Shown here one piece after another: positions 7,630 through 63,115 of a stretch of DNA of 64,000 nt. The DNA is taken from the NCBI GenBank assembly GCA_035626395.1, contig DASPNR010000013.1, forward strand, positions 89,308-153,307, given 5' to 3'. The DNA comes from Candidatus Limnocylindrales bacterium. Lineage in GTDB: Bacteria > Desulfobacterota > Binatia > UBA1149 > CAITLU01. Position 1 is the first letter of the stretch; each line of letters opens with the position of its first letter. The notes beneath the pieces were generated by a model. It did not search any database. It was not told the origin of the DNA and worked only from the letters and a program-made list of their open reading frames with translations. A program made the translations under genes and the position numbers.

Positions 7630-7657
7630 GCGGGGCCGGGATCGCTCCCGGCCCCGC
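7630..7657. terminator. Perfect 12-bp GC hairpin between convergent genes (possible bidirectional terminator)
   Basis: GCGGGGCCGGGA-tcgc-TCCCGGCCCCGC lies between the stop at 7606 (+) and the stop at 7671 (-). There is no U-tract. Confidence 0.4.
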
Positions 7658-7670
7658 CGTTGCCGTCGCC

Positions 7671-30489: not shown

Positions 30490-30573
30490 CGGGGCATGGC
30501 AATCGGTTCGCAGAGCAACGGTTTCGGGCCGACGTCGCGTCAGTCTATACAAGCCGCTGCCGGTTTCCGACTC

Positions 30574-37349: not shown

Positions 37350-37455
37350 CGCGTTGCTCCCCCCGCGGCAGGAACGTAGAATTCGCGTCCACTAACGCGC
37401 CAGGTTCCTGCAGTCAAAGCAGGTGACGCCGAAGCGCGCTCCCGGAAGCCTCGAG

Positions 37456-41019: not shown

Positions 41020-41029
41020 CGTCGCGGCG

Positions 41030-41518: not shown

Positions 41519-41605
41519 CCGCGTCGCACGCTAGGAGCACGTGGGCAGAGTGTCAACCCTGCTGCAGCGCTGGCATGCGCGCCGCTGCTGCCTAAGAATC
41601 GTCTC

Positions 41606-48371: not shown

Positions 48372-48498
48372 CCAACGTGCGTGCGCGAGCGCGGCGTTGC
48401 CCGAAGGCAGCGTGGACGATGGCCGCAACGCGGCGCCGTCGCCGCGCGCTCGTCCCCGCAGCGACGGTGCCGAGGCGCGCGTCGCGGGGCCTGCCGCG

Positions 48499-49284
48499 AT
48501 GAAGAGGCCACCGTTCGTTCTTGCCATCGGCGGCCTCGATCCGAGCTGCGGCGCCGGCATCGTGGCCGACGCGCGCACGCTCGAGCGGCTCGAAGTCATG
48601 CCGCTCGCCGTCGCCACCGCGGTGACCGTGCAATCGGGAGGCGGCGTGCGAGCCACGCACCCGGTTCCCGTTCCGCAAGTGACGGCACAGCTGCGCGAGC
48701 TTCTGCGCGCCTTTCCCGCATCGGCAATCAAGATCGGCCAGGTGCCGTCGGCGGCTTGCGCCGCCGCGCTGGCCGCTACGCTGCGCCCGCTGACTGCGCG
48801 AGTGCCGCTGGTGCTCGATCCTGTCTTGCGTGCTTCGGGCGGCGGCGAGCTGGCTGGGCCCGCGGCGGCGCGCGCCATCCTTGCGCGGCTCCTGCCGCTG
48901 GCGGCGGTGGTGACGGTCAACCTCGACGAGGCGGCCGTGCTGACCGGTATGGCGGTGCGCGACGTGGACGGGATGTCGGCCGCGGCGCGCCGCCTCTCGT
49001 CGCGGACGACCGGAGCCATCGTCATCAAGGGCGGGCACCTGCGCGGCCAGCCTCTCGACATGCTGTTGCACGAAGGCTGCGAGCGGATTTTTCGCGGCAC
49101 GCGGCTGCGCGGTTCGATGCACGGGACCGGGTGCGCATTCGCCAGCGCGATGGCGGCGGCGCTGGCGCGCGGCATGAGCGTCGAAGCCGCACTGGTCGGC
49201 GCGAGAAAGCACGTGCGCGAATTGCTGACGCACGCCGTCACTGCCGGCGGCGCACGATTGCGCGCGCCCCGCCGCGTTCGTTGA
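48499..49284 (+). CDS. thiD: Hydroxymethylpyrimidine/phosphomethylpyrimidine kinase
   Basis: Internal ATG 48499 (MKRPPFVLAIGGLDPSCGAGIVAD), IKIG, VLDPV, GTGCAFASAMAA. Confidence 0.85.
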   Translation: MKRPPFVLAIGGLDPSCGAGIVADARTLERLEVMPLAVATAVTVQSGGGVRATHPVPVPQVTAQLRELLRAFPASAIKIGQVPSAACAAALAATLRPLTARVPLVLDPVLRASGGGELAGPAAARAILARLLPLAAVVTVNLDEAAVLTGMAVRDVDGMSAAARRLSSRTTGAIVIKGGHLRGQPLDMLLHEGCERIFRGTRLRGSMHGTGCAFASAMAAALARGMSVEAALVGARKHVRELLTHAVTAGGARLRAPRRVR

Positions 49285-49463
49285 GATTGGCGTGTGGGCA
49301 CTGATATAGGTGCGTCATCAAAGACGCACCGCCCACCTCCCTGTCCGACAAGGCCGCGGCCGCTTCCGAGCGCCATCGCGGCACGCGCCGTCATCTGCGG
49401 CTTCTCGAAGAGCTGACGCTGTTTCTCGGACGCACGCCCGATTCCCAGGAAGCGCTCGAGGGT

Positions 49464-51746
49464 GTGGTACGCATGCTCGCCAGCGCCTTCGATTGCGAAG
49501 TCTGCTCGCTCTACAGCTTCGATCCAGGGACCGAAATCCTCAGCCTTGCAGCAACGCACGGCCTGCCCTCACGCAGCATCGGCCGCGTGACCATGAGCAA
49601 GAACGAAGGCCTGGTCGGTCTCGTGGTCGAGCAGCAGTCGCCGGTCGTCGTCGTGGATGCGCTGACGCATCCGCGCTTCAAGTTCTTCCCGGAAACGGGA
49701 GAAGAGAAGTACCACTCCTTCCTCGGCGTGCCGGTGGGCGAAGGCCTCGGCACGATCGGCGTGCTCGTCCTGCAGAGCCGGCGCCGCCGCCGCTTCACCA
49801 ACGAAGAGATCATGCTGGCGCGCTCGGTCGCGGGTCAGGCGCGCGCGCTGATGGTGAACGCGCACCTGTCCGAGCGCCTGCAGCACCAGGAAGAGGAGCG
49901 CGAGCGTTACCGGCGCGAGATGCAGAAGGCGATCCAGCGCCTGGAGGCGTTCGAGATCGGCAAGCGTCGCATCGACCGCCATCTCGACAGCGGCGGCGTG
50001 CTGCATCTGTCGGGCCTGGGTGCGTCGCCGGGATTCGGCATCGGACGCGCACACCGACTGGAGAAGCCCGTCGAGATCGAACGCATCGAGCTCAAGCCCG
50101 GACGCGGATACGAAAGCGAGCGCAGCCGCTTCGAAGCCGCGCTGGCCGAGGCCATCAAGGAAGTGGACGAGGCGCGCGAGCGCATGGGCGAGCTGGTGCC
50201 GGAGGTTGGCGGCGCCATGTTCGAAGCGCTGCGGATGATGATCGAGGACCGCTCCTTCACCAGCCGCATTCACGAGGAGATGGAGAAGGGCCTCTGCGCC
50301 GAAAGCGCGGTGCGCGTGGTGGTGCTCGACTACGTGCAGCGCTTCAGCACGATGAGCGACGACTACCTGCGCGAGCGCGTCTCCGACGTTCGCGAAACCG
50401 GGCAGCGCATCCTGCACCACCTGCTCGGCGTGGACGCACCGGTCCCCGAGGTGCGCGAGCACGCGGTGCTGGTGGCCTCCGAGCTCACCATCACCGATCT
50501 GGCGGCGATCGATCATTCCAAGCTCGAAGGCATCGTCACCTCGGCCGGCGGCGTCACCTCGCACGCCGCCATTCTCGCGAAGTCGCTCGGCATCCCGACC
50601 GTGGTCGGCGCGGCCGGCGTCTACGAGGCCGCGCGCGAGGGTTACGAAGTCATCGTCGACGGCAACTCGGGCACGGTCTACGTGCGCCCGGGCGCCGACG
50701 TCATCGCCGAATACCGCCGTCTGGACACCGAGTATCGCGAATTCCAGCGAGGGCTCGCCCATCTTCGCGACCTGCCGGCCGAGACCCTCGACGGTCACCG
50801 CGTAAGCCTGCTCGCCAACGTCGGATTGATCAGCGAGCTCGATCTGGTCGAGCGCTTCGGCGCCGAGGGCATCGGCCTTTATCGCACCGAGTTTCCGTTC
50901 CTTTCGTACCGCGATTTTCCGACGGAGGAGGAGCAGCTGCGGCTCTACAAGCGCGTGATGACGCGCATGCGCGGCCGCCCTGTCACCATTCGCACGCTCG
51001 ATCTCGGGGCGGACAAGTATCCGCTGTTCGCGCAGCAGACGCGCGAGGGCAACCCCTTTCTCGGCCTGCGCTCGATTCGCGTTTCGCTCGAATCGGAAGA
51101 CACGTTCCTCGATCAGCTTCGCGCCATCCTTCGGGCCGCCAGCGAGTTTCCCGTTCGCATCCTGTTCCCGATGATCACGAGCGTCGAGGAGCTGCGGCGC
51201 GTGCGCGAGCTCTACGCGGAGTGCCTCTCCGACCTGTCGCAGAACGGTTTTGTGCCCGCGCCAGGCATCGAGCTGGGAGCGATGATTGAGGTGCCGGCGG
51301 CCGTCTTGCGCGCGCCCGAGATCCTGCGCGAGGTCGACTTCGTCTCCATCGGCACCAACGACCTGATCCAGTACACGCTGGCGGTGGACCGCGACAATCT
51401 GAAGGTCGCCTCGATGTACGAGCCGCTGCATCCGGCCGTGCTGCAGTCGATCCGCATCGTGGTAGACGCCGCGCGCGAGGCGGGCCGCCGCGTCGGCATG
51501 TGCGGCGAGATGGCGGGCAACCCGCTGTGCACGCTGCTGCTGGTGGGAATGGGGCTGGACGAGCTGAGCATGGGGTCGCTCTACATTCCGGTGGTCAAGC
51601 AGATCATCCGCAGCGCGCGCTACGATGACGCGCAGCGCATCGCCCAGGACGTCCTGCGCTGCGACACGGTCGAGGAAGTCAAAGGCTACGTCTTTTCCGC
51701 CCTGCGGGAGCGCGGGCTCATCGAGCTGGTCGAGACGTTCACCTGA
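49464..51746 (+). CDS. ptsP: Phosphoenolpyruvate-protein phosphotransferase PtsP (GAF + Enzyme I); the true start is probably upstream of 49464
   Basis: GAF region (CEVCSLYSFD...GVLVLQS). EI motifs are GGVTSHAAILAKSLGIPTVVG (active His), GLYRTEF and IGTNDLIQYTLAVDR. Confidence 0.9.
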   Translation: MVRMLASAFDCEVCSLYSFDPGTEILSLAATHGLPSRSIGRVTMSKNEGLVGLVVEQQSPVVVVDALTHPRFKFFPETGEEKYHSFLGVPVGEGLGTIGVLVLQSRRRRRFTNEEIMLARSVAGQARALMVNAHLSERLQHQEEERERYRREMQKAIQRLEAFEIGKRRIDRHLDSGGVLHLSGLGASPGFGIGRAHRLEKPVEIERIELKPGRGYESERSRFEAALAEAIKEVDEARERMGELVPEVGGAMFEALRMMIEDRSFTSRIHEEMEKGLCAESAVRVVVLDYVQRFSTMSDDYLRERVSDVRETGQRILHHLLGVDAPVPEVREHAVLVASELTITDLAAIDHSKLEGIVTSAGGVTSHAAILAKSLGIPTVVGAAGVYEAAREGYEVIVDGNSGTVYVRPGADVIAEYRRLDTEYREFQRGLAHLRDLPAETLDGHRVSLLANVGLISELDLVERFGAEGIGLYRTEFPFLSYRDFPTEEEQLRLYKRVMTRMRGRPVTIRTLDLGADKYPLFAQQTREGNPFLGLRSIRVSLESEDTFLDQLRAILRAASEFPVRILFPMITSVEELRRVRELYAECLSDLSQNGFVPAPGIELGAMIEVPAAVLRAPEILREVDFVSIGTNDLIQYTLAVDRDNLKVASMYEPLHPAVLQSIRIVVDAAREAGRRVGMCGEMAGNPLCTLLLVGMGLDELSMGSLYIPVVKQIIRSARYDDAQRIAQDVLRCDTVEEVKGYVFSALRERGLIELVETFT

Positions 51747-51866: not shown

Positions 51867-52673
51867 TTAGGTCGGCGTGCCGCCGGTGTGCGCCTGAAGC
51901 CATTCGATGACCGCATCGACCGCACGCGGGTCGAGCAGCATGTTCTTGCCGCCTCCTGACTTCTCCACCGGCGCGAGCAGCGTCGGTTCGGCGGCGGGAA
52001 TCGTCACCAGCTTGGTTTCGAGCTTCTTGTCCTTGAAGTTGTCGCGCGCATCGGCCGGAAAGCGGCCGCGCTGGTAGAGGTCGTCGGGCAGCTTGTCGGA
52101 GACGACGATCAGCGTGGGCGCATCCACCTGCACGATGTCGGTCTCTCCGACCATGTTCGAGAACAGGATGACGCCTGCCGGCGGCTTCACCTGCGCATAG
52201 CGCGAGTAGATTCCCACGATCGTGTCGGTGCCCCAGGCGTGGCCGAACAGGAAGACCTTGTCCGGATCCACCTTGGCGTGCTCGACCGCGTGCGTGTACG
52301 CCTCCAGCGCATTGGAGCGGACGGTGGCATAGCGGCCCGGGCTGCTGCGACCGGTGCCGGGAGAGTCGAAGCGAAAGACGGCGAAGCCCGCGGCGACCAG
52401 CCGCTTGGCGAGCTGCGCGTAGATGCCGGTGTCGAGGTCGGCGCCGTAGCCCGGGGGCAGGCCGTGTCGGTCCAGCGCCTCCGATGCCGGGATCAGCACC
52501 ACCAGCGGCGCGGGCGTTCGCGCGGGAAATTCCCACTGCGCTGCCACGGTGGCATCGACGCTCTTGAACGTCGTCTCGACGACCTCACCGCGAGCGGTTG
52601 GGTCGGCGATGGTGACGGCTTGGGCGGTACGCGCAGGATGGAGCGAAGCTGCCGCGGCCAGGGCGAGAACCAT
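51867..52673 (-). CDS. Secreted alpha/beta hydrolase-like protein
   Basis: ATG 52673 (MVLALAAAASLHPARTAQA); an alternative TTG at 52733 adds an n-region. LVVLIPAS, FRFDSPGTGRS, and the elbow-like FLFGHAWGT (His-Ala-Trp in place of the classic GxSxG). Confidence 0.65.
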   Translation of the reverse strand: MVLALAAAASLHPARTAQAVTIADPTARGEVVETTFKSVDATVAAQWEFPARTPAPLVVLIPASEALDRHGLPPGYGADLDTGIYAQLAKRLVAAGFAVFRFDSPGTGRSSPGRYATVRSNALEAYTHAVEHAKVDPDKVFLFGHAWGTDTIVGIYSRYAQVKPPAGVILFSNMVGETDIVQVDAPTLIVVSDKLPDDLYQRGRFPADARDNFKDKKLETKLVTIPAAEPTLLAPVEKSGGGKNMLLDPRAVDAVIEWLQAHTGGTPT

Positions 52674-52744
52674 GACGACGCGTCTTCCGGCGAGGAGATG
52701 ACGGCCGGCGCCGGCCTTGTTCGTGGTGACCAAGCGAGCGCCGC

Positions 52745-53401
52745 TCAGAGGGGTTTCTTGGCGAAGTACCAGTCGGTGACTTCGAACTGCGGATCCCTGG
52801 CGCGATCCTCGGCGCCCTTGGCCGTCAGCGGCGGCGGCTGGATGACCTTGTCGCCAGGCCTCCATCCCTCGGGCGTCGCCACGCCGTGCTGCGTGGAGGT
52901 CTGCAGCGAGTTCACCAGGCGAAAGATCTCGTCGACGCTGCGGCCGTTGGTGAGAGGGTAGTAGACCATCGCCCGCAGGTTCTGGTCGGGATCGATCACG
53001 AAGACGCAGCGGACGGTCGCCGTGGAGGACGCGCCGGGATGAACCATGCCGTAAAGCTGCGCCACCTTCATGTCGAGGTCGGCGATCATGGGATAGCGGA
53101 TCTCGATGCCGAATTTGTCCTTGATGTTCCGAGTCCAGGCGATGTGCGCGTAGATGCTGTCGATGGACAGGCCGATGAGCTGGACGCCGAGCTTCTCGAA
53201 ATCGTCCTGCCGCCGCGCGAACTCCATGAGCTCGGTGGTGCACACGGGCGTGAAGTCGGCGGGGTGGGAGAACAGCACCACCCATTTCCCCTTGTAGTCG
53301 GAGAGCTTGATCGGACCGTGCGTGGAGACCGCTTCGAACTGCGGTGCCGGCTCCAGGAGCCGCGGCAGCGAAGGTTTGGGAGCGGCTTGGGCTTCGGTCA
53401 T
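52745..53401 (-). CDS. 1-Cys peroxiredoxin (Prx6-like)
   Basis: Internal ATG 53401 (MTEAQAAPKP). WVVLFSHPADFTPVCTTE, and a C-terminal extension typical of the Prx6 type. Confidence 0.9.
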   Translation of the reverse strand: MTEAQAAPKPSLPRLLEPAPQFEAVSTHGPIKLSDYKGKWVVLFSHPADFTPVCTTELMEFARRQDDFEKLGVQLIGLSIDSIYAHIAWTRNIKDKFGIEIRYPMIADLDMKVAQLYGMVHPGASSTATVRCVFVIDPDQNLRAMVYYPLTNGRSVDEIFRLVNSLQTSTQHGVATPEGWRPGDKVIQPPPLTAKGAEDRARDPQFEVTDWYFAKKPL

Positions 53402-54230
53402 GGGAGCAACCTCCGAACGTTCTTGCGCAGCCGAAGGCGCGCCGAGGGTGAGTTTCCGCGGAGGGGCAGGGTTGTCAAACAGGAGGCACGAGCATGCGAA
53501 AGACCGGTTCCTCCTGCCGTTCGAGCTCATGGCGCGCCCCTCGAGCTGGCGCTCGTCGTGTCATTCCACCTCCCGCGTCAACCGACATGGGCATCGAACG
53601 CAGCGCCGGACGCCGAACACTGACGTTCCAGAACACCGCCCGCTACGAATCCGCCAGCGCCTTCTCGAGCTTTCCGGCCTCGGTCTTGGCCCGTTGCTGC
53701 CCGCCGTGCGAGCGGCAGTAGGCGATCACGATCGGTGTCAGCGTACCGCGGGAACGGACGACGGCGAAGGCCTCAGGCGATCTGCAGCACCGGCTTCGGA
53801 AGCCGTTTTCGAGCGCCGGAATCTGCACGACCTGGCAACGGAAGCAGCTGCCTTCTCTGACTACAGTTCCAACCATTCTTCGCCACGATGCATGCGAAGG
53901 GTAGCGCGGCGGGTGGATGGTGCCAGGGATGCTTGTGCGGCGTCCTGTGCGATGCACACGCTCTTGGTTGGACGAATGACGGATCGATAGCGCATATCGA
54001 CGCAGTCGCAGCCGGCATCACCGGTATCGGACGCGGACTTGTCACAGGCAGATTCGAGCCGTTGTCGTTCCATGAGACCGGATCCCGGCCAGCCACGTTC
54101 CGCTCTGGTCTGGCGTCCGGGAGCGAAACCGGCTGCCCGCAGGCGCAACCATGCGGCCGCCGGGACTGCCGGCCACCCCTAGCGCGGTGGCGAGACGCGG
54201 AAGCCGCGACCCGGTGCCAGAACGGATCGG

Positions 54231-57200
54231 GTGCGAGAGCGCGAATTTGCGCTGGCGGTGCGTTTTTTTCGTCGTTCCAGTCGCGACTATGGGGTGCGCC
54301 CTGTGATAGGGGTCTGTCGCGTGAAAAGGGCTGCTTCTTCGAATGCCCGGCGTCATCCCGCCTCGCCCGTCGGGCACGGCGGGATCCCCGCCGTTTTGCT
54401 CGCCCGCTGGCAGACGTTCCTCGATGAGCTGGCGGAGTTGCTGCAGGTGCCCTCCGTTTTGATTCGCGCCGCCGAAGCGAGCGAAATCGTCGTCCTGGTA
54501 TCCAGCCTGTCCGCGGGAAATCCCTATCGGGCTGGCGCAAGCTGGCGGCGTGGGCGCGACATCTACTGCGAGGCGGCCGTGCAGACCTCCGATGCGGTCC
54601 ACATCGCGGACGCCCGCGAGCACCCGCAATGGAAGAACAGCCCCGATGCGCGTGCAGGTCTCATCGCCTATCTCGGCGTGAACGTCCGGTGGCCCGACGG
54701 AGCCGTCCTCGGCACGATCTGCGTGCTCGACAGCAAGCCCAACGTATTCGGCGAAACCGAGCGCCGGTTGCTGCTGCGGTTTCGCGACCTCTGCCAGCTC
54801 GATCTCGAGTCGCTCCAATCCGAGGGCAACGCCGATACACGATCGGGCCAATCCTGGTGTGAGTCCGGTACCTCCCTGCAGCCGCTGGCCGCACTCAGCC
54901 ATCAGTCCATGGCCGCACGCGAGGCGCTGGAGCGCTCGCGGCTGCACTATGAACAGCTCGTATCCTCGATCGATGGCATCGTCTGGGAAGCCGACGCCAG
55001 CACGTTCCAATTCACCTTCGTCAGCCAGCAGGCCGAGCGTCTGCTCGGTTATCCGCTGTCGCGCTGGCTCGATGAGCCGAACTTCTGGCGCGAGCACGTC
55101 CATCCAGCCGATCGCGAATGGGTCACCGATCTGTGCACAGGAGCTACGCGGGAATCGCGCTCGCACGATTTCGAGTATCGCATGATTGCAGCTGACGGCG
55201 GCGTCGTCTGGCTGCGCGACATCGTCAAGGTGGTCTCCGAGCATGGTCAGCCTTCCCGGCTGCGCGGCATCATGATCGACATCACCGAACGCAAGCACGC
55301 CGAGGAAGAGCGGCGACGTTCCGAGGAGCGCTACCGGACGCTGATCGAGAACGTCAACGACGTCGTCTTCGCGACCGACCGCTCGGGCAGGTTCACCTAC
55401 GTCAGCCCCGTCATCGAGCGCATCAGCGGCTATCGGGTGGAGGATCTGCTCGGCAAACCGTTGATCGAGATCGTCTACGCCGAAGACGCGGCTTATCTGG
55501 AGGAGGCGGCGCGGCGTACCATGGCAGGCCAGGCCGAGCCTCGTGAATTCCGGATTCAGGAGAAGGACGGACGAATCCGCTGGGTGCGCAGCTCGAGCAG
55601 GCCGCGCTACGAGAATGGCGAGCTGGTGGGAATGATCGGGATCGTCACCGACATCAACGATCGTAAGCGGGCCGAGGAAGCGGTCCAGGAGAGCGAGGCC
55701 CGGTACAGACAGCTCGTGGAGTTGTCACCCTATGGCATCGTCGTGCATGCGCGAGGCAAAGTGATGTTTGCCAACAATGCGGCCGCTCGGCTGATGGGCG
55801 CCGCAGACGCATCCGACCTGGTGGGACGGTCGATCATGGAAGTCGTCCGGCCCGAGCGCCGCCAGCAACTCGCCGAAAGGATCCGGACCATGCTCGAGAC
55901 CGGGACCCCGGCAGAGGCCCGTGAAGATCAGCTCCTGCGCTTGGACGGCGTTCCCATCGACGTGGAGACTACGGGCATGCCCATGATCTTCGGCGGCGAG
56001 CCGGCCGTCCAGGTGGTCATCCATGACATCACCGAGCGAAAGCGGACCGAGGACGCACTGCGAGCGAGCGAGGAGCGCTACCGCTATCTCGTCGAGAACG
56101 TCAACGATGTCGTCTATACCATGGATACGCTCGGCAACTTCACTTACGTCAGTCCAGCCATCAGTTCGGTTTCTTCGTACTCTGCCGACGAGGTGAAGAG
56201 CCTGGGCGTTGCACACTTCGTCCATCCTGACGATTTGCCGGCACTGGAACAGCATCGCGGCCGCAACTTGTTGGGCGAGGCTGGACAGATCGATTTCCGG
56301 GTCTTCGACAAGGCCGGCGATCTGCGCTGGATTCGCGCGTCCACCAGCCCACGCGTGGAAAACGGCCAGGTCGTCGGATTGAACGGCATCTTCAGCGACA
56401 TCACCGAGCGCAAGCTTACCGAGAATGCGTTGCACGAGAGCGAGGAGCGCTATCGCCAGCTCTTCGAGAACGCGCACGAAATCATCTACTGCCACGACCT
56501 TGCCGGCAATTTCGTCTCAATCAATCCGGCGGCCGAGGTGGCGCTTGGATACACCCAGACCGAAGTCGAAAGCATGAGTCTCGGTCAGATCATCGCGCCA
56601 AACAGCCGCGGCTATGTTGCCGACCTGATCGACCGCGTACTCAGCAAACGCGCGATCCCCGCCGCCGTCGAGGTGGAGGTCATCACCAAGCAAGGTGACA
56701 GCGTCCTGCTGGAAGCGAGCCCGCGCGTGGTCGAGCGCGACGGCGTTCCCATCGCGGTCCAGGGGATCGCGCGCGATGTCACCGAACGCAAGAGGGCCCA
56801 GAAGGAAATCCAGCGGCTCAATGAGCAACTCGAGGAGCGTGTTCGCGAGCGCACTGCCGAGTTGCGAGCCGCCAACAAGGAACTGGAGGCATTCAGTTAT
56901 TCGGTATCGCACGATTTGCGCGCGCCTTTACGCGTGATCGAAGGCTTCAGCCACGTGCTGCTCGAGGAGTACGGCCCTCTCGTCGATCAACAGGGGCAGT
57001 ACTACATGAGCCGGATCCAGGCGACGAGTACGCGAATGGGGCATCTCATCCGCGACCTGCTCGCGCTGGCCCGCGTCACGCGCAGCAGGATGGCCTGGAC
57101 GACGGTGGACTTGAGTGCGATCGGCCACGCAATTGCCGGCGAGCTCGCGAACTCGGACGCGCAGCGCGATGTCCAGTTCATCATCGAAAACGGTGTGTGC

Positions 57201-57587
57201 GTGGAAGGTGATGCCTCGCTTCTGCGGGTGGTGCTGGAAAACCTGTTTGAGAATGCGTGGAAATACACGAGCAGGCACGAACGCGCACGCATAGAGTTCG
57301 GCACACGCGACGCGGACGGCGAAACGATCTATTTCGTTCGCGACGACGGCGCCGGCTTCGACATGGAGCACGCGAGCAAGCTCTTCGGAGCCTTCGAGCG
57401 ACTGCATCCGGTAAGCGAATTCGAGGGGACCGGGATCGGACTTGCCACGGTTCAGCGCATCGTGGAGCGACACGGCGGACATGTTTGGGCGGAGGCCGAA
57501 CCCGAGAAAGGCGCGACGTTCTATTTCACATTGCTGCCCACCAGATCGGCGAGCGCGCGATCGAAACGGTTGGAACCCGGTAGCTGA
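54231..57587 (+). CDS. Sensor histidine kinase: GAF-like + 5 PAS + HisKA + HATPase_c (no adjacent response regulator)
   Basis: There are five PAS units, each ending in DITERK/DINDRK/DVTERK followed by an SEERYR linker. The H-box is AFSYSVSHDLRAPL. ATP-binding motifs are NLFENAWKY, YFVRDDGAGFD and GTGIGLATVQRI. The start is uncertain (GTG 54231 or GTG 54321). Confidence 0.9.
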   Translation: MREREFALAVRFFRRSSRDYGVRPVIGVCRVKRAASSNARRHPASPVGHGGIPAVLLARWQTFLDELAELLQVPSVLIRAAEASEIVVLVSSLSAGNPYRAGASWRRGRDIYCEAAVQTSDAVHIADAREHPQWKNSPDARAGLIAYLGVNVRWPDGAVLGTICVLDSKPNVFGETERRLLLRFRDLCQLDLESLQSEGNADTRSGQSWCESGTSLQPLAALSHQSMAAREALERSRLHYEQLVSSIDGIVWEADASTFQFTFVSQQAERLLGYPLSRWLDEPNFWREHVHPADREWVTDLCTGATRESRSHDFEYRMIAADGGVVWLRDIVKVVSEHGQPSRLRGIMIDITERKHAEEERRRSEERYRTLIENVNDVVFATDRSGRFTYVSPVIERISGYRVEDLLGKPLIEIVYAEDAAYLEEAARRTMAGQAEPREFRIQEKDGRIRWVRSSSRPRYENGELVGMIGIVTDINDRKRAEEAVQESEARYRQLVELSPYGIVVHARGKVMFANNAAARLMGAADASDLVGRSIMEVVRPERRQQLAERIRTMLETGTPAEAREDQLLRLDGVPIDVETTGMPMIFGGEPAVQVVIHDITERKRTEDALRASEERYRYLVENVNDVVYTMDTLGNFTYVSPAISSVSSYSADEVKSLGVAHFVHPDDLPALEQHRGRNLLGEAGQIDFRVFDKAGDLRWIRASTSPRVENGQVVGLNGIFSDITERKLTENALHESEERYRQLFENAHEIIYCHDLAGNFVSINPAAEVALGYTQTEVESMSLGQIIAPNSRGYVADLIDRVLSKRAIPAAVEVEVITKQGDSVLLEASPRVVERDGVPIAVQGIARDVTERKRAQKEIQRLNEQLEERVRERTAELRAANKELEAFSYSVSHDLRAPLRVIEGFSHVLLEEYGPLVDQQGQYYMSRIQATSTRMGHLIRDLLALARVTRSRMAWTTVDLSAIGHAIAGELANSDAQRDVQFIIENGVCVEGDASLLRVVLENLFENAWKYTSRHERARIEFGTRDADGETIYFVRDDGAGFDMEHASKLFGAFERLHPVSEFEGTGIGLATVQRIVERHGGHVWAEAEPEKGATFYFTLLPTRSASARSKRLEPGS

Positions 57588-57865
57588 GCCGCGTCGCCGC
57601 TGCGCGGCCTTCGCAACGGTTCGCTGCCGTTCGAGCACACGGCCGGCGCGAGGATAGGGCATACGCACGCGGCCGACCGCCGTTCCGGTCTTACGGGCGG
57701 ATGTTGCCGCGGCGCGGACTGACGCGGTGCGGCATGCGGACGGAACGCGTGCACCGCTTCGTATAGTGCGATTTGTCACTTGGCGCAGCCGCGCCAACTC
57801 GCTACCTTTCGGCACCATTTTTTAGGACGTCCAAAACCGAAACCCATGGTGGGAGGGTCAGGGGC

Positions 57866-60800
57866 ATGTCTTACACTTCGTCGCGCCTCGCGATTCTTTG
57901 CTTTGGTTTGTCCGTCGCCGTCCAGGCGTTCCCCGAACGTGCGCCGGCTGCCGAAGTCGGTACCAACGACTTTCGGATCAGCGTCATGGGCACGGACGGC
58001 GACACGACGGTCAACGTCAACACACAGGCCGTCGCGTACAACGGTGATCAGACCGAATACCTGGTCGTCTGGTCGGCCGATGAGATGCTCAACGGCGAGT
58101 TCGAGATCTACGGCCAGATCGTCGCCGCCGACGGCTCCCTTCTAGGTTCCGATTTCCGGCTGAGCGACATGGGGCCGGATCTGAACGCGAGTTATGACGC
58201 CACCGTGCCGGCCGTCGCGTACAACGCGGCGACGAACGAGTACCTCGTCGTCTGGCGCGGCAACGACGGGACGAGCGAGAACGACATCTACGGCCAGCGC
58301 GTGGACGCCGATGGTGTCGAGGTCGGCACGAACGATTTCCGCATCAGCGACGTCGGCTCGCTCAGCTACGCGGCCAATGCGCCGGCCGTAACGTGTCACG
58401 ATACCAACGGCGAATGCCTGGTGGTCTGGGAGGCCGACTACGAGACGGTGACGGCGAACGATGAAATCGAGATTTTCGGACAGCTTCTCGACGGCACCGG
58501 CAACGCCATCGGCACGAACGACTTCCGCATCAGCCGCATGGGCCCCGACAACAACGCCAATTACGATGCCGATGCCCCGCGCGTGGTCTACAACAGCGCC
58601 AACGACGAATACTTCGTCGTGTGGGTGGCCGAGGATGACAGCCTGCCGCTGATCGACGGCGAGTTCGAGGTGTACGGCCAGCGTCTGACGTCGGCCGGAG
58701 CCGAGACCGGCAACGACGACTTCCGCATCAGCGACGTCGGCATCGACGGAATCGCCGCCACCAGCGCCAGTGCTCCCGCCGTCGCCTACGACCCGGACGC
58801 CGGCGAGTACCTCGTCGTGTGGTCGGCCGACGAGACGAGCGGGCAGAGCGAGATCCACGGCCAGCGCTTGACCGCATCGACGGGCGCCGAGGTGGGGACC
58901 AACGACTTCCGCATCAGCGACATGGGGCCCGATGGCAGCTCCTCCTACGGCGCCTTCACGCCGGCCGTGGCCTACAACGGCATCAACGACGAATTTTTCG
59001 TTGTCTGGCAGGGGGACGACGACACCTCGCCTCTGGTCAACAACGAGTTCGAGGTCTTCGGCCAGCGCATCGCGAGCGGCACCGGCGCCGCGGTGGGCGC
59101 CAACGACATGCGGCTGAGCGACATGGGCGTCGACGGCAACGTGGCATTCAACGTGGCTGCCGGCGTCAGCGTCGCCTTCAACGCCGCCAGCCTCGAGTAT
59201 CTCGTTGCGTGGACGGGCGACGACACGACCGATGGCGAATTCGAGGCGTACGGCCAGCGCGTCTCCAACTGCGGCGATTCCACCATCGACACAGGGGAAC
59301 AGTGTGACGCCGGCGCCAGCAACGGCGCCGCGGCATCGTGCTGCTCGGCAACCTGCAGCTATCGCCCGGTCGACTACATCTGTCGCGGCGCCGCCGGCGA
59401 GTGCGACGTGGCCGAAACCTGCACGGGCGCGAGCGCGAGCTGCCCGTCCGACTCCTTGCAGCCCGCGGATTCCACCTGCACCGATGACGGCAACGCCTGC
59501 ACCAGCGACCGCTGCGACGGCAGCAGCACGGCGTGCCAGCACGCGGCGGGCAATGCCGGCGCCGTCTGCCGTGCAGCCGTCGACGACTGCGACGCTGCCG
59601 AGGTGTGCGACGGCTCTTCCACGTCGTGCCCGGCCGATGTGCTCGATGCCGCCGGCACGGCGTGCGCCAGCGACGGCAATCCCTGCACCGTCGACCAGTG
59701 CGACGGCGTCAACACCGCCTGCCAACATCCCGCCGGCAATGCCGGCGCGACCTGCCGCGCAGCAGCCGGCGAGTGCGACGCCGCCGAGATCTGCGACGGT
59801 GCCGACCCTGCCTGCCCCGTGGATGCGAAGGTCGCCTCCGGCACGTCCTGCAGCGACGACGGCAACGCCTGCACGGAGGATCGCTGTGACGGGAGCGGCG
59901 ATGCGTGCCAGCATCCCGCCGGCAACGTCGGCGCCGTCTGTCGCGCGGCCGCCGGCGAATGCGACGTCGCCGAGACCTGCGACGGCACCGCCACGTGCCC
60001 GACCGATGGGCTGACCGATGCCGGGACGTCGTGCAGCAGCGATGGAAATCCCTGCACGATCGACCAGTGCGACGGCGCGAGCGCACTGTGCCAGCACCCT
60101 GCCGGCAACGCCGGCGCCACCTGCCGAGCGGCCGCCGACGAGTGCGATGCGGCCGAACTGTGCGACGGCGCCAGCACGACCTGTCCGGGCGATGCCAAGC
60201 AGTCGGCCGACACCGCATGCACGGACGACGGCAACGCCTGCACGCTCGACCGCTGCGACGGCTCCAGCGACGCATGCCAGCACCCCGCCGGCAATACCGG
60301 TACGGTCTGCCGCGCCGCGGCCGGAGAGTGCGATATCGCCGAGACCTGCGACGGCACCGCCACGTGCCCGTCCGACGCGCTCGTGCCGGCCGATTCCTCG
60401 TGCACCAGCGACGGGAACGTCTGCACGAGGGACGTCTGCGACGGCTCGAGCCCGCTGTGCCAGCATCCGGCCGGCAATGCCGGAACCGTCTGCCGGGCCG
60501 CGGCCGGCGAGTGCGACACCGCCGAGACCTGCAGCGGGGAAGCCGCCGAGTGCCCCGCCGACGCCAAGGCGCCCGCGGACACGACCTGCTCGAGCGACGG
60601 CAACGTCTGCACGCTCGATCGCTGCGACGGCTCCAGCGACACCTGCCAGCACCCGGCCGGCAACGCCGGCACGGTCTGCCGCGCTGGCTCCGGTGATCTG
60701 TGCGACCCCGACGAGCTGTGCACCGGCTCGGAGGCCGACTGCCCCGCCGACGTCGTCCAGCCCGCCGGCACCGTCTGCCGCGCCGGCTCGGGTGATCTCT

Positions 60801-62017
60801 GCAACAGCGACGAGACCTGCAGCGGAACGGCGGGGGCCGCGTGTCCGGCCGATGCGTTCGAGCCATCCACGACGGTTTGCCGCTCGGCTGCGCATGACTG
60901 TGACTCCGCCGAGCTATGTCCCGGCACGCCGGCGGGGTGCCCGTCGGATGCAGATCTGCCCGATGGAACGAGCTGCGACGACGGCGACGATTGCACGATC
61001 GACGAAGTCTGCAGCGGCGGCGTCTGCGGCGATGCCACGCGCATCTGCATCGATGAGTTCGTTGCCTATCGCGTCAACTCCTCCGATGCCGCCGACACGC
61101 TCCCCAAAGGATGGAACGTCACGTTGAACGATGAGCACGTTGCCGACGGCGACGGAGACGATCCGGAAAACCACGCCGCCAAGAAGACGATGGGCCTGCT
61201 CACTCCGGCGGGCAGCGATGGAACTGGCATGGCGGTCGAGCCCGCGCTGCATTACCTGCGCTACCAGGTCGGCCCTGCCGGTGACGGCGCCAGCGCGATG
61301 CTCGCGAACGGCGCGTTCCCGCCTACGGTGGCGCACATCCCCCGACGCTGGGAGCTCACCAACCAGTTCGGCACGATCGTCGTCGACTCGCGCAAGGTGA
61401 CGGCGATGCTGGTGCCCGCCGCTACCGGCGACACCGGCCCGCTCGTCGCCCCCAGCGGCAAGAACCACTTCCTGTGCTACCAGGTGCGTACGGCCAAGGG
61501 AGTCGCCAGCGATCAGACTCCCGAACTTGCTCCCGGCGTCACCAAGTTCCGCACCGATCTGCAGGGATACTTCCGCGACACGTTCGACGACTGCGCCACC
61601 GACGCCGACGGCGGCATCGGCTTCGAGGGTACCAGCGTGGAAGGGCACTGCCTCTATGATCTCAAAATCCCCGTGGAGCTGTGCAGCCCGGCGGCGATGA
61701 GCGAGGTCGAGCCGCCGCGGGAGAGTGCGGCGACGATCGAAGAGTCGAACCCGGTCACGCCGTTCGCGCTGCTCTGCTACAAGTCCGGCCTCGCGCGCGT
61801 CTGGAAGAGCGAGGAGGTGGCGGCGCTTGCCGGCGGAACGGCCGGCGCGCGCATTGAACCGAACCAGTCGCCGCACCAGGTGCACTCGCTGACGACGGGC
61901 AATCCAGTCGAGGTGGCTCCTGCCAGCGGCTTCATCTCGCCGTCGGCGCTCGACACGGTGCCCTCGCGCACGATCTGCGTATCGACGGCGGTGACGGACG
62001 TTCAGATGCTGCCTTGA
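57866..62017 (+). CDS. 1,383-aa secreted mosaic protein: 7 propeller-like repeats + disintegrin-like Cys-module array + 4 C-terminal modules; function unknown
   Basis: ATG 57866 follows GGGAGGG (57851-57857). The signal peptide is MSYTSSRLAILCFGLSVAVQA|F. The ORF track start (TTG 57773) lacks both an SD and a signal peptide. The internal repeat structure is given in the findings. Confidence 0.85.
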   Translation: MSYTSSRLAILCFGLSVAVQAFPERAPAAEVGTNDFRISVMGTDGDTTVNVNTQAVAYNGDQTEYLVVWSADEMLNGEFEIYGQIVAADGSLLGSDFRLSDMGPDLNASYDATVPAVAYNAATNEYLVVWRGNDGTSENDIYGQRVDADGVEVGTNDFRISDVGSLSYAANAPAVTCHDTNGECLVVWEADYETVTANDEIEIFGQLLDGTGNAIGTNDFRISRMGPDNNANYDADAPRVVYNSANDEYFVVWVAEDDSLPLIDGEFEVYGQRLTSAGAETGNDDFRISDVGIDGIAATSASAPAVAYDPDAGEYLVVWSADETSGQSEIHGQRLTASTGAEVGTNDFRISDMGPDGSSSYGAFTPAVAYNGINDEFFVVWQGDDDTSPLVNNEFEVFGQRIASGTGAAVGANDMRLSDMGVDGNVAFNVAAGVSVAFNAASLEYLVAWTGDDTTDGEFEAYGQRVSNCGDSTIDTGEQCDAGASNGAAASCCSATCSYRPVDYICRGAAGECDVAETCTGASASCPSDSLQPADSTCTDDGNACTSDRCDGSSTACQHAAGNAGAVCRAAVDDCDAAEVCDGSSTSCPADVLDAAGTACASDGNPCTVDQCDGVNTACQHPAGNAGATCRAAAGECDAAEICDGADPACPVDAKVASGTSCSDDGNACTEDRCDGSGDACQHPAGNVGAVCRAAAGECDVAETCDGTATCPTDGLTDAGTSCSSDGNPCTIDQCDGASALCQHPAGNAGATCRAAADECDAAELCDGASTTCPGDAKQSADTACTDDGNACTLDRCDGSSDACQHPAGNTGTVCRAAAGECDIAETCDGTATCPSDALVPADSSCTSDGNVCTRDVCDGSSPLCQHPAGNAGTVCRAAAGECDTAETCSGEAAECPADAKAPADTTCSSDGNVCTLDRCDGSSDTCQHPAGNAGTVCRAGSGDLCDPDELCTGSEADCPADVVQPAGTVCRAGSGDLCNSDETCSGTAGAACPADAFEPSTTVCRSAAHDCDSAELCPGTPAGCPSDADLPDGTSCDDGDDCTIDEVCSGGVCGDATRICIDEFVAYRVNSSDAADTLPKGWNVTLNDEHVADGDGDDPENHAAKKTMGLLTPAGSDGTGMAVEPALHYLRYQVGPAGDGASAMLANGAFPPTVAHIPRRWELTNQFGTIVVDSRKVTAMLVPAATGDTGPLVAPSGKNHFLCYQVRTAKGVASDQTPELAPGVTKFRTDLQGYFRDTFDDCATDADGGIGFEGTSVEGHCLYDLKIPVELCSPAAMSEVEPPRESAATIEESNPVTPFALLCYKSGLARVWKSEEVAALAGGTAGARIEPNQSPHQVHSLTTGNPVEVAPASGFISPSALDTVPSRTICVSTAVTDVQMLP
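57956..59266 (+). repeat. Seven ~55-65-aa coding repeats (NDFRISDMGPDG...PAVAYN...EYLVVW...EFEIYGQR)
   Basis: Repeat starts read directly at ORF-track residues 62, 127, 248, 315 and 377, plus 187 and 443. Each has four conserved beta-strand-like segments. Confidence 0.8.
59381..61027 (+). repeat. Seven 61-62-aa (about 186-bp) tandem Cys-rich coding repeats followed by three 33-34-aa half-units
   Basis: The unit is CRAAAGECDxAExCDGxxxxCPxDxxxxxGTxCxxDGNxCTxDxCDGxxxxCQHPAGNAGxx. CR positions in ORF-track numbering are 537, 599, 661, 723, 784, 846, 907, 969, 1002 and 1036. Confidence 0.9.
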
Positions 62018-62056
62018 ACGTGCCATCGGGGAGCCGGCCGTGCCGCGCTTGCGCGA

Positions 62057-63115
62057 CTAATTCGCGTCGTTCGCGGTTTCTGCCGCTTCGGAGGTTTCCA
62101 GTGCTGCCTCCTCGGCTTCCAGTGCTTCGAGATCGTCGGGGAAGATGCCGAAGTGCGCAGCCACGTCCGGCGCATAACGCAGGAGATCGACGCGAAGCTT
62201 GAGCAGGCTCATGTCCTTGGCCTTGCTCTCGAGCATGACGTCGAAACTAAGGCCTTCCGCGTCTCGCATGAAGCGTGCGAATTCGAACGGATTGGTGAAG
62301 TCCGCATGATTCGTGAGGATCGGCGGCAGCTGCACCGTTTTCTTGCGCTTGGTTCTCGGGTCCCGCCGCTGCACATCGCGCAGTTCGGTCCGGGGTGACG
62401 AGTAGTGGATCTTGGGCCGCTGCGGCTCGGGCCACGTCTCCACGATTCGTCGAAGCGTGTCCACCATGCCGAGGCGCTCTGGATTCAAGCACCAGAAGTG
62501 CTGGTAATCGAAGACGAGCCGCACGCCCGTGTGCTCGTAGATCCAAAGGACATCGGCCGCACTGAACCGGATGTCGTCGTGTTCGAGCACCAGTCGGTTC
62601 TGCACGTGCTTTGGAAGACGCTTCCAGTTCTCGACCCAGCGCGCACGGCTCGCCTGGTGGTCGCCGTAGACACCGCCGACGTGCGTCACCATGACCGCTT
62701 CAGGTCCCAGCTCCATGCGATCGAGCATTTCCGCCTGAGACGAGAAGTCCCAGATGCTCTTCCTGGTCAGCGTCTCGTCCGGACTGTTGAGCAGCACGTA
62801 TTGCGAGGGATGGAATGAGAGGCGGATGTCCAGCTGCCGCGCCTTGGCACCGAGCGCCTGCAACTCGGCGTCGCTCTCCGCCACCATCTTGTGAAACTGC
62901 GGCATGTCGGGATGGGTGGCATACGGCGCCAGATCCGACGACAGCCGGTACATCTTGATCTCGTGCTCGGCGAGATAGTCGAAGATCGCGTCGACGTATT
63001 CCAGCGAGACCTTGAGATGCGGATTCTTTTGCCAGCGCCGTGCGTCGTTCGACTTCAAGCCGGGCTTCCCCATCACCTTCACGGCAAAACCCAGCCGTGG
63101 TGGCACTTGCGTCAT
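62057..63115 (-). CDS. uvdE: UV damage endonuclease (UvdE/UvsE family)
   Basis: LGFAVKVMG, MYRLSSDLAPY, RLSFHPSQYVLLNS, HVGG, LVLEHDD - the UvdE TIM-barrel pattern. Its ATG 63115 overlaps the upstream stop. Confidence 0.9.
   Translation of the reverse strand: MTQVPPRLGFAVKVMGKPGLKSNDARRWQKNPHLKVSLEYVDAIFDYLAEHEIKMYRLSSDLAPYATHPDMPQFHKMVAESDAELQALGAKARQLDIRLSFHPSQYVLLNSPDETLTRKSIWDFSSQAEMLDRMELGPEAVMVTHVGGVYGDHQASRARWVENWKRLPKHVQNRLVLEHDDIRFSAADVLWIYEHTGVRLVFDYQHFWCLNPERLGMVDTLRRIVETWPEPQRPKIHYSSPRTELRDVQRRDPRTKRKKTVQLPPILTNHADFTNPFEFARFMRDAEGLSFDVMLESKAKDMSLLKLRVDLLRYAPDVAAHFGIFPDDLEALEAEEAALETSEAAETANDAN

Follow-up and report, generated by a model that had tools for sequence, protein, structure and literature searches.

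Judged from its sequence, the gene at positions 57866..62017 (+ strand, as are all features below) of the 64,000-nt window analysed here encodes a real, exported, bacterial and disulfide-rich protein of 1383 residues with three distinct repeat regions, an N-terminal head, a stalk of disintegrin-like modules and a C-terminal domain (CTD). Each of these parts is a member of a large, uncharacterised family of environmental bacteria, and the whole is thus a rare combination of common modules. The head repeat is common to more than 1000 proteins, tandem disintegrin-like arrays already tagged PF00200 to at least 2979 proteins, and an exhaustive HMMER search with the CTD gave 482 clusters at E<=1e-3 (104 at E<=1e-30), so that a preliminary description of the gene as the most unusual one in the window needs tempering. 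All three parts were found in just one other protein among those sampled. Profile searches did not assign the whole protein to any characterised family, and literature searches retrieved no experiment for the head, stalk or CTD family. Most likely, the protein is a surface or extracellular binding protein, though it could be retained in the periplasm; the fuller proposal of a Sec-exported, oxidatively folded and Ca2+-loaded extracytoplasmic binding protein with head, stalk and base has, in our estimate, about even chances of being correct.

The coding sequence is complete (1383 codons plus stop) and lies within an open frame spanning 57773-62017, with its start at the ATG at 57866. Direct reading of the upstream sequence revealed a Shine-Dalgarno motif, GGGAGGG (57851..57857), whose GGAGG core ends 9 nt before this ATG. 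In the public annotation, the gene (P0001, 1369 aa) begins at a TTG 14 codons downstream and therefore misses the signal peptide. With MSYTSSRLAILCFGLSVAVQA followed by FPE at the N-terminus, aa 1-22 (57866..57931) can be recognised as a signal peptide of Sec type I, which the translation resolves into MSYTSSR, LAILCFGLSVAV and QA; there is no lipobox. Signal-peptide-like N-termini were also recognised by a crude test in 69 of 83 homologues. The good ribosome-binding site and signal peptide noted earlier are thus both borne out, as are the "about 90" cysteines (87 counted, 77 of them within aa 476-1075) and the lack of a transmembrane segment: past the signal peptide, no hydrophobic segment was found in the whole protein (best 19-residue Kyte-Doolittle mean 1.46). 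The mature protein is strongly acidic, with a pI of 4.05 and a net charge of about -160.

It is exceedingly improbable that the gene is an assembly chimera, a collapsed repeat or a decaying pseudogene, as its highly repetitive and GC-rich DNA (72-74% GC in the array) might suggest. The frame stays open across 4.15 kb, and Tandem Repeats Finder (TRF) detected periods of 186 and 369 nt in the stalk DNA with copies that are just 71-76% identical, the 369-nt super-repeat corresponding to two A-B module pairs (see below). The codon usage of the gene is native (GC3 of 0.86, like the nearby housekeeping genes). Furthermore, the same head-array-CTD order recurs in P0103, a protein present in two independent assemblies, and P0035 has the head and the array.

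The stalk (aa 469-1061) matches the Pfam Disintegrin family (PF00200) in 10 stretches with E=9e-41 and 139 bits (cut-off 35.1), and Dicty_CTDC matches it in 6-8 stretches. Its first segment (aa 469-505; 59270..59380) is equivalent to the "shoulder" or Ds-like half, the N-terminal one, of a D domain of ADAM type, as indicated by phmmer and a relaxed Ca2+-site-II regex that matches at aa 469; its sequence, CGDSTIDTGEQCD...CC...C, is a near match to the site-II consensus XCGN(X)3EXGEXCD (PMC4885070). The array itself (aa 506-1061; 59381..61048) was parsed into ten "A" and seven "B" modules plus a degenerate B' copy that ends the stalk (aa 1037-1061). The A modules (CRx4-5[ED]CDxxExCxGx3-5CPxD) are Da-like with four cysteines each and start at aa 506, 568, 630, 692, 753, 815, 876, 938, 971 and 1005, while the B modules (CxxDGNxCTxDxCDGx4CQHPAGNxG), also with four cysteines each, are Dicty_CTDC/Cw-like. 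The tandem ADAM-type motif CR-x4-ECD-x2-E-x-C-x-G...CP-x-D of the preliminary description is present in ten copies if small length variation is allowed. Seven of these ten match the Ca2+-site-III consensus strictly and all ten in relaxed form, compared to 0.0025 consensus matches per sequence in composition-preserving shuffles used as a control. In sum, aa 469-537 of the stalk make up a single shortened D domain of ADAM type, and nine further copies of just its C-terminal "arm" half come after it.

By these matches, the stalk is a genuine member of the disintegrin-like family of ADAM and snake-venom sequences. In the PDB, it is most closely related to the D/C domains of P-III metalloproteinases from snake venom (SVMPs; the group includes K-like 3k7n, RVV-X 2e3x, atragin 3k7l and VAP1), and residues 215-290 of K-like align with the stalk start at E=2.6e-8 (phmmer), running from CGN..GEECD through CR..ECD..E.C.G.S..CP.D into Cw. 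Shared features are thus the CGx..GExCD start, the CR..ECD..E.C.G....CP.D arm with its Ca2+-site-III ligand pattern, the 4-Cys module that comes next in Cw position and, presumably, the role of a rigid scaffold held together by disulfides and Ca2+. However, our protein is bacterial and lacks a metalloproteinase domain, a hyper-variable region, an EGF module and a transmembrane tail, and its first D domain is shortened and has no central loop segment. While ADAMs have one D domain, the stalk iterates the arm half alone ten times, alternating with Dicty_CTDC-type modules. Lacking both a protease domain and an RGD-type loop, the protein is not an ADAM and not a disintegrin of the integrin-binding kind.

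No RGD, KGD, MLD or similar motif occurs in the protein, and this bears on the idea that the disintegrin modules mimic eukaryotic proteins by binding to integrin-like receptors on eukaryotes that serve as host or prey. We consider this very unlikely in spite of the genuine sequence homology with the D domains of metazoan ADAMs and SVMPs and of a similar array in an oomycete protein (P0322 of Thraustotheca clavata), given also the native codon usage and the thousands of array homologues in free-living soil/sediment-type MAG lineages (Binatia, Myxococcota, Deltaproteobacteria and Limnocylindria). Of the functions floated in the preliminary description, adhesin or scaffold remains the most reasonable class, but receptor mimicry finds no support in a protein that lacks an RGD-type loop. 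Among the closest known relatives of the array are uncharacterised, PF00200-tagged bacterial proteins from metagenomes and MAGs that are named "cysteine-rich repeat" or "slime mold repeat-containing" (e.g., P0276-P0395); they are secreted, 800-1000 aa long and carry 4-16 tandem A modules with 38-63% identity over 40-100% of the stalk array. Most of them differ from our protein in having another N-domain (about 280 aa) and another C-domain (about 240 aa, ...CWEGSFATPxKN...), with a distant CTD-like match in only 4 of 120 and the seven-repeat head in none of these 120.

The head (aa 32-468; 57959..59269) was parsed into seven tandem repeats of 58-67 aa with the pattern GxNDFRISDMGPDG...PAVAYN...EYLVVW...EFEIYGQR and a mean pairwise identity of 48%. 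Among 120 relatives, the copy number is 14 in 108 and 7 in the three with disintegrin arrays, and this quantisation at 7 or 14 argues for closed seven-bladed propellers; the head is thus probably one closed seven-bladed beta-propeller. No PDB relative was found for it by sequence. T9SS or dockerin tails on members of the head-repeat family place those members outside the cell, and CBM-type tails are seen as well. Such tails are typical of secreted carbohydrate-active enzymes and, like the CBM96 and beta-helix heads within the CTD family, would fit an enzyme whose head is a glycosidase propeller related to GH43 and whose Cys-rich array and CTD serve for linkage and substrate binding. Precomputed Pfam annotation indeed labels the head repeats PF22847 (Glyco_hydro_43_rel), but all GH43-type matches are faint or non-significant (in our local Pfam scan, GH43 at E=0.011 and 15.6 bits, below the cut-off of 32.2). 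GH43 propellers have five divergent blades, whereas the 7 or 14 blades seen here, 48% mutually identical, fit multivalent binders better. With no enzyme found in the PDB by sequence or profile either, a role as such an enzyme appears unlikely.

The CTD (aa 1062-1383; 61049..62014) is all-beta and comprises four homologous modules. Module 1 (FVAYRV ... DDPENH ... GLLTPA; 61046..61231) lacks the Cys pair, module 2 (HYLRYQV ... NQFGTIVVDSRKVTAMLVPA; 61235..61444) is followed by module 3 (HFLCYQV ... DLQGYF.D.FDDC ... VELCSPA; 61451..61723; invariant C1204 and C1273), and module 4 (ALLCYKS ... Q.PH ... RTICVSTAV...LP; 61751..62014; invariant C1304 and C1371) reaches the C-terminus of the protein. 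Profile-profile comparison with hhalign linked five of the six module pairs at 77-95% probability and E-values of 6e-8 to 2e-5 (M1-M2 92.8%, M1-M3 90.8%, M2-M3 88.4%, M2-M4 94.7%, M3-M4 77.2%), so that three internally repetitive regions built from different units are present as described before. Besides the four family-invariant cysteines there are further ones at aa 1243 and 1262. AlphaFold2 predicted a confident single-domain fold from 52 sequences (pLDDT 96.2, pTM 0.93). The CTD is terminal in 84 of 88 family members, behind passengers of 0-2347 aa (other domains follow it in the remaining 4), and proline is the last residue in 44 of 84 members. The earlier remark that there is no recognisable sorting tail is literally true, but the C-terminal modules make up one conserved and almost always terminal domain. 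It is combined with Kelch, YWTD, FG-GAP, lectin, beta-helix or CBM heads and with TSP3, EGF or disintegrin stalks, and several paralogues with different heads can lie on one contig (L007 and L025 share a contig; L001 has two copies). Across the family, the median pI is 4.15 for passenger regions versus 7.2 for the CTD, while the CTD of the 1383-aa protein is itself acidic (pI 4.7).

A constant C-terminus with a variable N-terminus, together with secreted proteins that consist of the CTD alone behind a signal peptide (P0183, P0200 and P0187), could also be expected of targeted toxins or effectors in which exchangeable, receptor-binding heads bring a membrane-active or otherwise harmful CTD to target cells, as in aerolysin-family architectures. 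Searching with the CTD model, Foldseek found no match in PDB or BFVD, and the lysenin and class-II fusion proteins among its weak top rows are noise (E>=0.17, probability <=0.03, TM about 0.1). With its invariant disulfides and four compact homologous modules, the CTD shows no evident amphipathic insertion hairpin, and it would be atypical of a pore-former to have its head and effector held apart by a rigid stalk of some 590 aa. Among 25 loci, we found no conserved neighbour or partner gene, including immunity-like ones. A toxin seems distinctly unlikely. The same-strand gene upstream does encode a GAF/multi-PAS histidine kinase, matching the multi-PAS kinase reported before, yet this linkage is kept at no related locus.

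In the preferred reading as a binding protein, the gene product crosses the inner membrane by means of its signal peptide and carries no membrane anchor; no outer-membrane translocation route is evident. The head repeats probably close into a seven-bladed propeller, and its blades are similar enough (48% identity) that a repetitive ligand, e.g., a glycan or polymer, would probably find a number of equivalent sites on it. By homology, the stalk starts with the shortened D domain, the arm half of which counts as the first of ten Da-like modules, each predicted from the consensus match to carry buried structural Ca2+-site-III ligands and interleaved with Cw/Dicty_CTDC-like modules. The Da/Cw pair in ADAMs is a continuous rigid unit and, extrapolating from this single pair to a tandem array, the stalk should form a stiff and strongly acidic rod of tens of nanometres that holds the head off the base. 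The 322-aa CTD with its four modules is the constant part of its family and, as suggested by its constant position, most likely provides the function that the members share: it would either attach the protein to the envelope or matrix of the producer or mediate self-assembly. We rejected a cleavable sorting signal since the CTD also occurs as a stand-alone secreted protein.

Overall, the protein may work like TraA or flocculin-type surface receptors with their head, Cys-rich stalk and C-terminal attachment. TraA of Myxococcus xanthus has a signal sequence, a PA14 lectin head, a stalk of Cys-rich tandem repeats proposed to be rigid (TIGR04201, said to resemble Pfam00526) and a C-terminal sorting tag (PMC3325183). 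Like TraA and yeast Flo1/Flo5, our protein would thus present an exported N-terminal binding head on a Cys-rich repeat stalk with a C-terminal surface-attachment element, though TraA and the flocculins are not homologous to it in head or anchor. The head is a seven-repeat, propeller-like region instead of PA14, the stalk modules are ADAM-type, and at the C-terminus there is a folded domain of 322 aa that has neither a transmembrane helix nor MYXO-CTERM. No NCBIfam model matched the protein (TIGR04201 and TIGR03901 included, provided that the library contains them), a check for the TIGR02232-type Myxococcus Cys-rich repeat raised earlier gave no match, and no TraB-like partner lies near the gene.

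The CTD has a weak Pfam likeness to DUF7450 (PF24247), a "repeat of unknown function" for which a literature search gave no function and no publications. CTD module 2 matches profile positions 16-71 with 16-20 bits (19.9 for the protein's PF24247 match), which remains below the cut-off of 27, and the match extends over fewer than half of the profile's 151 positions. Nevertheless, 14 of 52 CTD family members match DUF7450 (best E=2.8e-8), the CTD-only protein P0183 exceeds the gathering cut-off (30.7 vs 27), and a "QFG...LCxPxxK" strand motif is common to the CTD and the DUF7450-tagged tails of other disintegrin-array proteins.

The giant protein is encoded within an open reading frame at 57773-62017 (+) that holds a 1383-aa coding sequence from the ATG at 57866, preceded by the Shine-Dalgarno sequence GGGAGGG (57851-57857, +). 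As read from the translation, the protein opens with MSYTSSRLAILCFGLSVAVQA|FPE, in which the n-, h- and c-regions of a Sec type-I signal peptide can be recognised, in agreement with the preliminary description of this gene, which had also noted a good ribosome-binding site, about 90 cysteines and no transmembrane segment; we count 87 cysteines, 77 of them within aa 476-1075, and find neither a hydrophobic segment past the signal peptide nor any membrane anchor. In the public annotation, this gene (P0001, 1369 aa) begins at an internal TTG (aa 15), 14 codons further on, and lacks the signal peptide, which the ATG at 57866 with its proper Shine-Dalgarno sequence brings back (57866-57910). The annotated start should therefore be moved to 57866. 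The mature chain is a strongly acidic polypeptide of ~138 kDa (pI 4.05, net charge about -160). The GC3 of its gene (0.86) equals that of neighbouring housekeeping genes (PBP1A, 0.87; PtsP, 0.87), and the window is ordinary chromosome that also encodes ArgG, TatC, an AAA+ ATPase and RmlD. Promoter, terminator and Rfam scans of 57300-62300 gave nothing above chance.

Three regions make up the mature protein: a head (aa 32-468), a stalk (aa 469-1061) and a tail (aa ~1062-1383). By its sequence, the stalk belongs to the Pfam Disintegrin family, as had been supposed from its cysteine pattern: PF00200 matches the whole protein with 139 bits (E=8.9e-41; gathering threshold 35.1 bits) in 10 stretches, the first covering profile positions 22-75 of 75, and the stalk region scored alone reaches 150 bits, while Dicty_CTDC matches it in 6-8 stretches. 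Residues 469-505 (CGDSTIDTGEQCD...CC...C) correspond to the first half of an ADAM D domain and are followed by ten "arm" modules of the pattern CRx4-5[ED]CDxxExCxGx3-5CPxD. The first seven of these alternate with seven "wrist" modules (CxxDGNxCTxDxCDGx4CQHPAGNxG), after which come three lone arms and a degenerate wrist. In the PDB, the stalk has its best relatives among snake-venom P-III metalloproteinases (K-like 3k7n, E=2.6e-8; RVV-X, atragin, ecarin), and since the alignment spans the D-domain start, the CR..ECD..CP.D arm and the first cysteines of the cysteine-rich wrist, each arm-wrist pair corresponds in position to the Da and Cw subdomains of these proteins.

A structural review of ADAMs and snake-venom metalloproteinases gives CD(X)2(E/D)XCXG(X)4C(X)2(D/N) as the consensus of Ca2+-site III and XCGN(X)3EXGEXCD as that of site II in the shoulder subdomain (PMC4885070). 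The Ca2+-ligand pattern is intact in the stalk: predicted site III is matched exactly in seven of the ten arms and in all ten if G(X)3-5C and C[DN] are allowed, compared with a mean of 0.0025 matches in shuffled sequences. A candidate site II occurs once (aa 469); because of conservative N->D and E->D exchanges the strict pattern fails, and a relaxed one matches. In ADAMs and snake-venom metalloproteinases, the structural Ca2+ ions are deeply buried and EDTA-resistant and Da/Cw form a continuous rigid structure (PMC4885070), and the stalk may work like this arm/wrist scaffold. Bacteria here repeat just the site-III arm and a wrist of the ADAM scaffold, which points to a simple modular unit from which stiff rods outside the cell could be built.

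At the DNA level, the array repeats with periods of 186 and 369 nt at an identity of just 71-76%, which argues that it is old and not the product of an assembly collapse. The 369-nt super-repeat comprises two arm-wrist pairs (59474-60684; 3.3 copies, 76% matches) and outscores the 186-nt period, indicating that the array grew through the copying of two-pair units. Along the array, CPxDAK motifs alternate with CPxDxL. That so repetitive a gene might be an artefact such as an assembly chimera had been considered from the outset, and its chance is negligible given both this divergence and the same three-part order in P0103, a "Terriglobales" MAG protein recovered from two independent assemblies.

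In the ADAM/reprolysin family (M12B), the D domain is preceded by a reprolysin-type zinc metalloproteinase domain. No Reprolysin or Pep_M12B match was found in the giant protein by Pfam at E<=1-10 and the head occupies that place; it is thus not an ADAM or reprolysin. Similarly, true integrin-blocking disintegrins expose an RGD/KGD/MLD-type tripeptide loop, and the protein is not a pharmacological disintegrin because it contains no RGD, KGD, MGD, VGD, WGD, MLD, KTS or RTS. Its loops instead read xECD/xDCD like those of ADAMs, in which loops of the xECD type are buried (PMC4885070). An integrin or eukaryote mimic, to which the resemblance with venom proteins might point, is for these reasons very improbable. 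A relationship to the Myxococcus Cys-rich repeat TIGR02232, also raised initially, or to TIGR04201 or MYXO-CTERM finds no backing either: NCBIfam returned no family at E<=1 for the whole protein, a scan that covers TIGR02232, TIGR04201 and TIGR03901 only if they are part of that release. With Pfam, PF13948 (DUF4215) gave no match in this protein, although it does match others that share its tail.

The head consists of seven tandem repeats of 58-67 aa (mean pairwise identity 48%) with the motif GxNDFRISDMGPDG...PAVAYN...EYLVVW...EFEIYGQR, each showing four hydrophobic strand-like segments. More than 1000 database proteins match the giant protein in this region only, from MAGs named Anaerolineales, Eisenbacteria, Gaiellaceae and Planctomycetota, and the T9SS or dockerin tails on some of them imply that they are extracellular. 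The repeat count is exactly 14 in 108 of the 120 best head relatives (P0002-P0120 family; repeats of ~66 aa) and exactly seven in the three carriers of a disintegrin array, i.e., our protein, P0035 and P0103. Because a closed toroid requires a fixed number of repeats, this quantisation at 7 and 14 makes it likely that the head is one closed seven-bladed propeller (and that the 14-repeat proteins have two). The high blade-to-blade identity further suggests one equivalent site per blade and hence multivalent binding. Searches of Pfam propeller families and of the PDB, the latter with the whole head region and with a single-repeat profile, detected no significant match or solved relative. Many head-family proteins share a ~230-aa pre-domain that our protein lacks.

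The repeat family has no real Pfam model, and what annotation there is points to glycoside hydrolases: GH43 is the only hit of a local Pfam scan of the head, and the precomputed tag is PF22847 ("Glyco_hydro_43_rel"). GH43 and its relatives (PF04616/PF22847) are five-bladed propellers with a catalytic Asp/Glu/Asp triad. A GH43-like enzyme is nevertheless unlikely, as the score stays below the cut-off (15.6 versus 32.2 bits, E=0.011), the precomputed matches are flagged as "faint" and the head would have seven blades instead of five, so we do not regard it as a confirmed GH43 relative.

The tail had been described as four unnamed modules, and we find that these are mutually homologous (hhalign 77-95% in five of six pairs of family sub-alignments) and together form one conserved, mostly terminal C-terminal domain (CTD) of 322 aa. 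Each module opens with an h-x-[CRA]-Y-x-h strand and closes with an h-h-[CV]-x-P strand, and the cysteines at aa 1204, 1273, 1304 and 1371 are invariant across the family. A word-indexed search had given a single relative, and an exhaustive HMMER search with a three-sequence profile retrieved 482 cluster representatives carrying the CTD at E<=1e-3 (104 at E<=1e-30). Among 88 full-length matches, the CTD stops 0-8 residues from the C-terminus in 84 and is followed by further domains in four, and the preceding passengers range from 0 to 2347 aa. While the CTD stays constant, these passengers comprise propellers (Kelch, LDL-receptor YWTD, FG-GAP, SGL, GSDH, SBBP), other heads (beta-helix/NosD, CBM96, CHRD, legume lectin) and stalk-type repeats (12 thrombospondin type-3 repeats, Ca-binding EGF, DUF4215), with disintegrin arrays in P0103, P0174 and P0195. 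Family-wide, the median pI is 4.15 for the acidic passengers and 7.2 for the near-neutral CTD. Metazoan matrix-like Ca2+-binding stalks precede the CTD among P0158, P0135, P0174 and P0148 (12 TSP3; TSP3 plus cbEGF; legume lectin plus disintegrin array plus FG-GAP), as do DUF7933/DUF11 arrays.

AlphaFold2 predicts the CTD from a 52-sequence alignment as an all-beta domain (pLDDT 96.2, pTM 0.93), in which apparent strands of 17-21 residues read as hairpins in the sequence. This confidently predicted fold appears unlike anything solved: Foldseek found nothing in the PDB (best E=0.17, probability <=0.03) or BFVD, and a CTD sequence profile had no match in the PDB. Rows for lysenin and flavivirus E in the Foldseek output could hint at a pore-former and thereby at a targeted toxin in which the tail would be the effector, but with probabilities <=0.03 we rejected the hint and judge such a toxin to be quite improbable. 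DUF7450 (PF24247) matches 14 of 52 CTD-family members, one of them above the cut-off (P0183, 30.7 bits), and scores 16.3-19.9 bits in our protein (gathering threshold 27). Since this cut-off is passed within the family, the giant protein is probably a distant, sub-threshold relative of DUF7450.

P0183, P0200 and P0187 consist of a signal peptide and the CTD, nothing else. Together with the four members in which other domains follow, they indicate that the CTD is an autonomous functional domain and not a cleaved sorting peptide. The giant protein has no Pfam or NCBIfam match to T9SS CTD, PEP-CTERM, LPXTG, autotransporter barrel, SLH or dockerin and neither a terminal transmembrane helix nor an aromatic-terminal OMP signature; the C-terminal residue across the family is mostly Pro, not Phe/Trp, and the invariant cysteines are of the disulfide type. 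In P0226, the CTD is N-terminal and a Cys-rich region comes after it.

We propose that the giant protein is a surface or extracellular binding protein of head, stalk and base, a reading that in our judgement has about an even chance of being right. Following Sec export and oxidative folding, it would bind about 11 structural Ca2+ ions, the stalk would form a stiff acidic rod with the multivalent propeller head at its distal end, and the four-module CTD at the proximal end would supply the function shared across its family, either fixing the protein to the envelope or matrix of its producer or letting it self-assemble. TraA is proposed to follow the same logic: behind its signal sequence come a PA14 head, a "rigid stalk" of Cys-rich repeats and a C-terminal tag (PMC3325183). 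The giant protein is built from unrelated head and base modules.

Tandem arrays of arm modules are found in at least 2979 proteins at E<=1e-5 (8000 scored), with sources named Candidatus Binatia, Deltaproteobacteria, Myxococcota, Margulisiibacteriota, Limnocylindria, Alphaproteobacteria MAGs and one oomycete. These proteins hold 4-16 arms between other terminal domains. Nearly all of the best 120 are tagged with PF00200; four of the 120 have a distant CTD-like tail and none the seven-repeat head. The oomycete protein (P0322, Thraustotheca clavata, "Disintegrin domain-containing protein"; 11 arms by regular expression) aligns with 38% identity over 95% of the bacterial array, showing that tandem arm arrays are not confined to bacteria or animals. 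Many of P0276-P0395 share an unnamed ~240-aa C-domain ending in ...CWEGSFATPxKN..FKxKxP along with a ~280-aa N-domain, and a subset of these array proteins ends in a DUF7450-like "QFG....LCVPxxK" strand. Among the proteins sampled, all three parts occur together only in the giant protein and P0103, and P0035 has head and array without a CTD. A genome scan for relatives found just two distant loci, in a Deltaproteobacteria MAG and a Terriglobales MAG.

The full three-part order is rare, yet no part of it is unique, and its initial description as the most unusual gene in the window should be toned down: each belongs to a large and entirely uncharacterised family, and the disintegrin tag had already been assigned automatically. 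Literature on PF22847, DUF7450 and bacterial disintegrin proteins yielded no characterisation, and one genome paper merely lists the Pfam family in Minicystis rosea. What we add is the breakdown of the stalk into arms with Ca2+-site III and wrists, the 7/14 quantisation of head repeats and the unification of the four tail modules into a single domain behind many different heads. The giant protein therefore offers a clearly bounded representative of three large families without known function, i.e., the 7/14-repeat heads (>1000 proteins), the tandem disintegrin-arm arrays (~3000 or more, PF00200-tagged and never studied) and the CTD. More tentatively, and with greater doubt than belief, we suggest that the CTD could be a hitherto unrecognised, autonomously folding platform for surface attachment or self-assembly that shows interchangeable heads on Ca2+/disulfide stalks independently of known sorting tags. 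If true, environmental bacteria would display propellers, lectins, CBMs and beta-helices on stalks drawn from the module pool of metazoan matrix proteins (disintegrin, TSP3, cbEGF), CTD-only proteins would be the bulk subunit or a competitor, and a new bacterial way to present binding modules would emerge. As a corollary, the ADAM arm/wrist unit would be one of many modules that radiated widely in bacteria, a point relevant to how the metazoan disintegrin-like and cysteine-rich region arose. The protein also raises the question of whether that region and the bacterial modules go back to a common origin.

Several contigs bear two CTD-family genes with different heads, suggesting paralogue families within one genome: at locus L001, genes at 7260-8981 and 15810-16901 with differing N-terminal parts are separated by ~7 kb that include the gene of an RTX-repeat protein, and L007 and L025, again with differing N-terminal parts, share contig Ga0315338_1000248. 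When the ORFs of 25 CTD-family loci (window, L001, L004, L006-L027) were clustered, the gene itself was all that these loci had in common. The widest cluster of neighbours, a redoxin-like one, spanned four loci and was judged coincidental, its member in the window being a cytoplasmic 1-Cys peroxiredoxin. Neither the upstream histidine kinase (54231-57587, +; GAF, 4-5 PAS, HisKA and HATPase_c, no receiver domain) nor the convergent UvdE gene is kept beside P0035 or P0103.

Elsewhere in the window, no Pfam match at the thresholds used was found for the ORFs 37396-39480 (+), 28915-30603 (-), 2502-3929 (+) and 46617-49559 (-). The first three have GC3 values of 0.83-0.85, and the last, 980 aa long, overlaps high-GC3 plus-strand ORFs and may be a shadow frame. 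The peroxiredoxin ORF (AhpC-TSA plus 1-cysPrx_C; 52748-53530, -) overlaps the 5' part of ORF 51867-53285 (-), whose alpha/beta-hydrolase gene is probably shorter than this longest frame. At 40243-41793 (-), the TatC domain fills just residues 269-482 of a 517-codon frame, which has either a long N-terminal extension or fusion or a true start far downstream.
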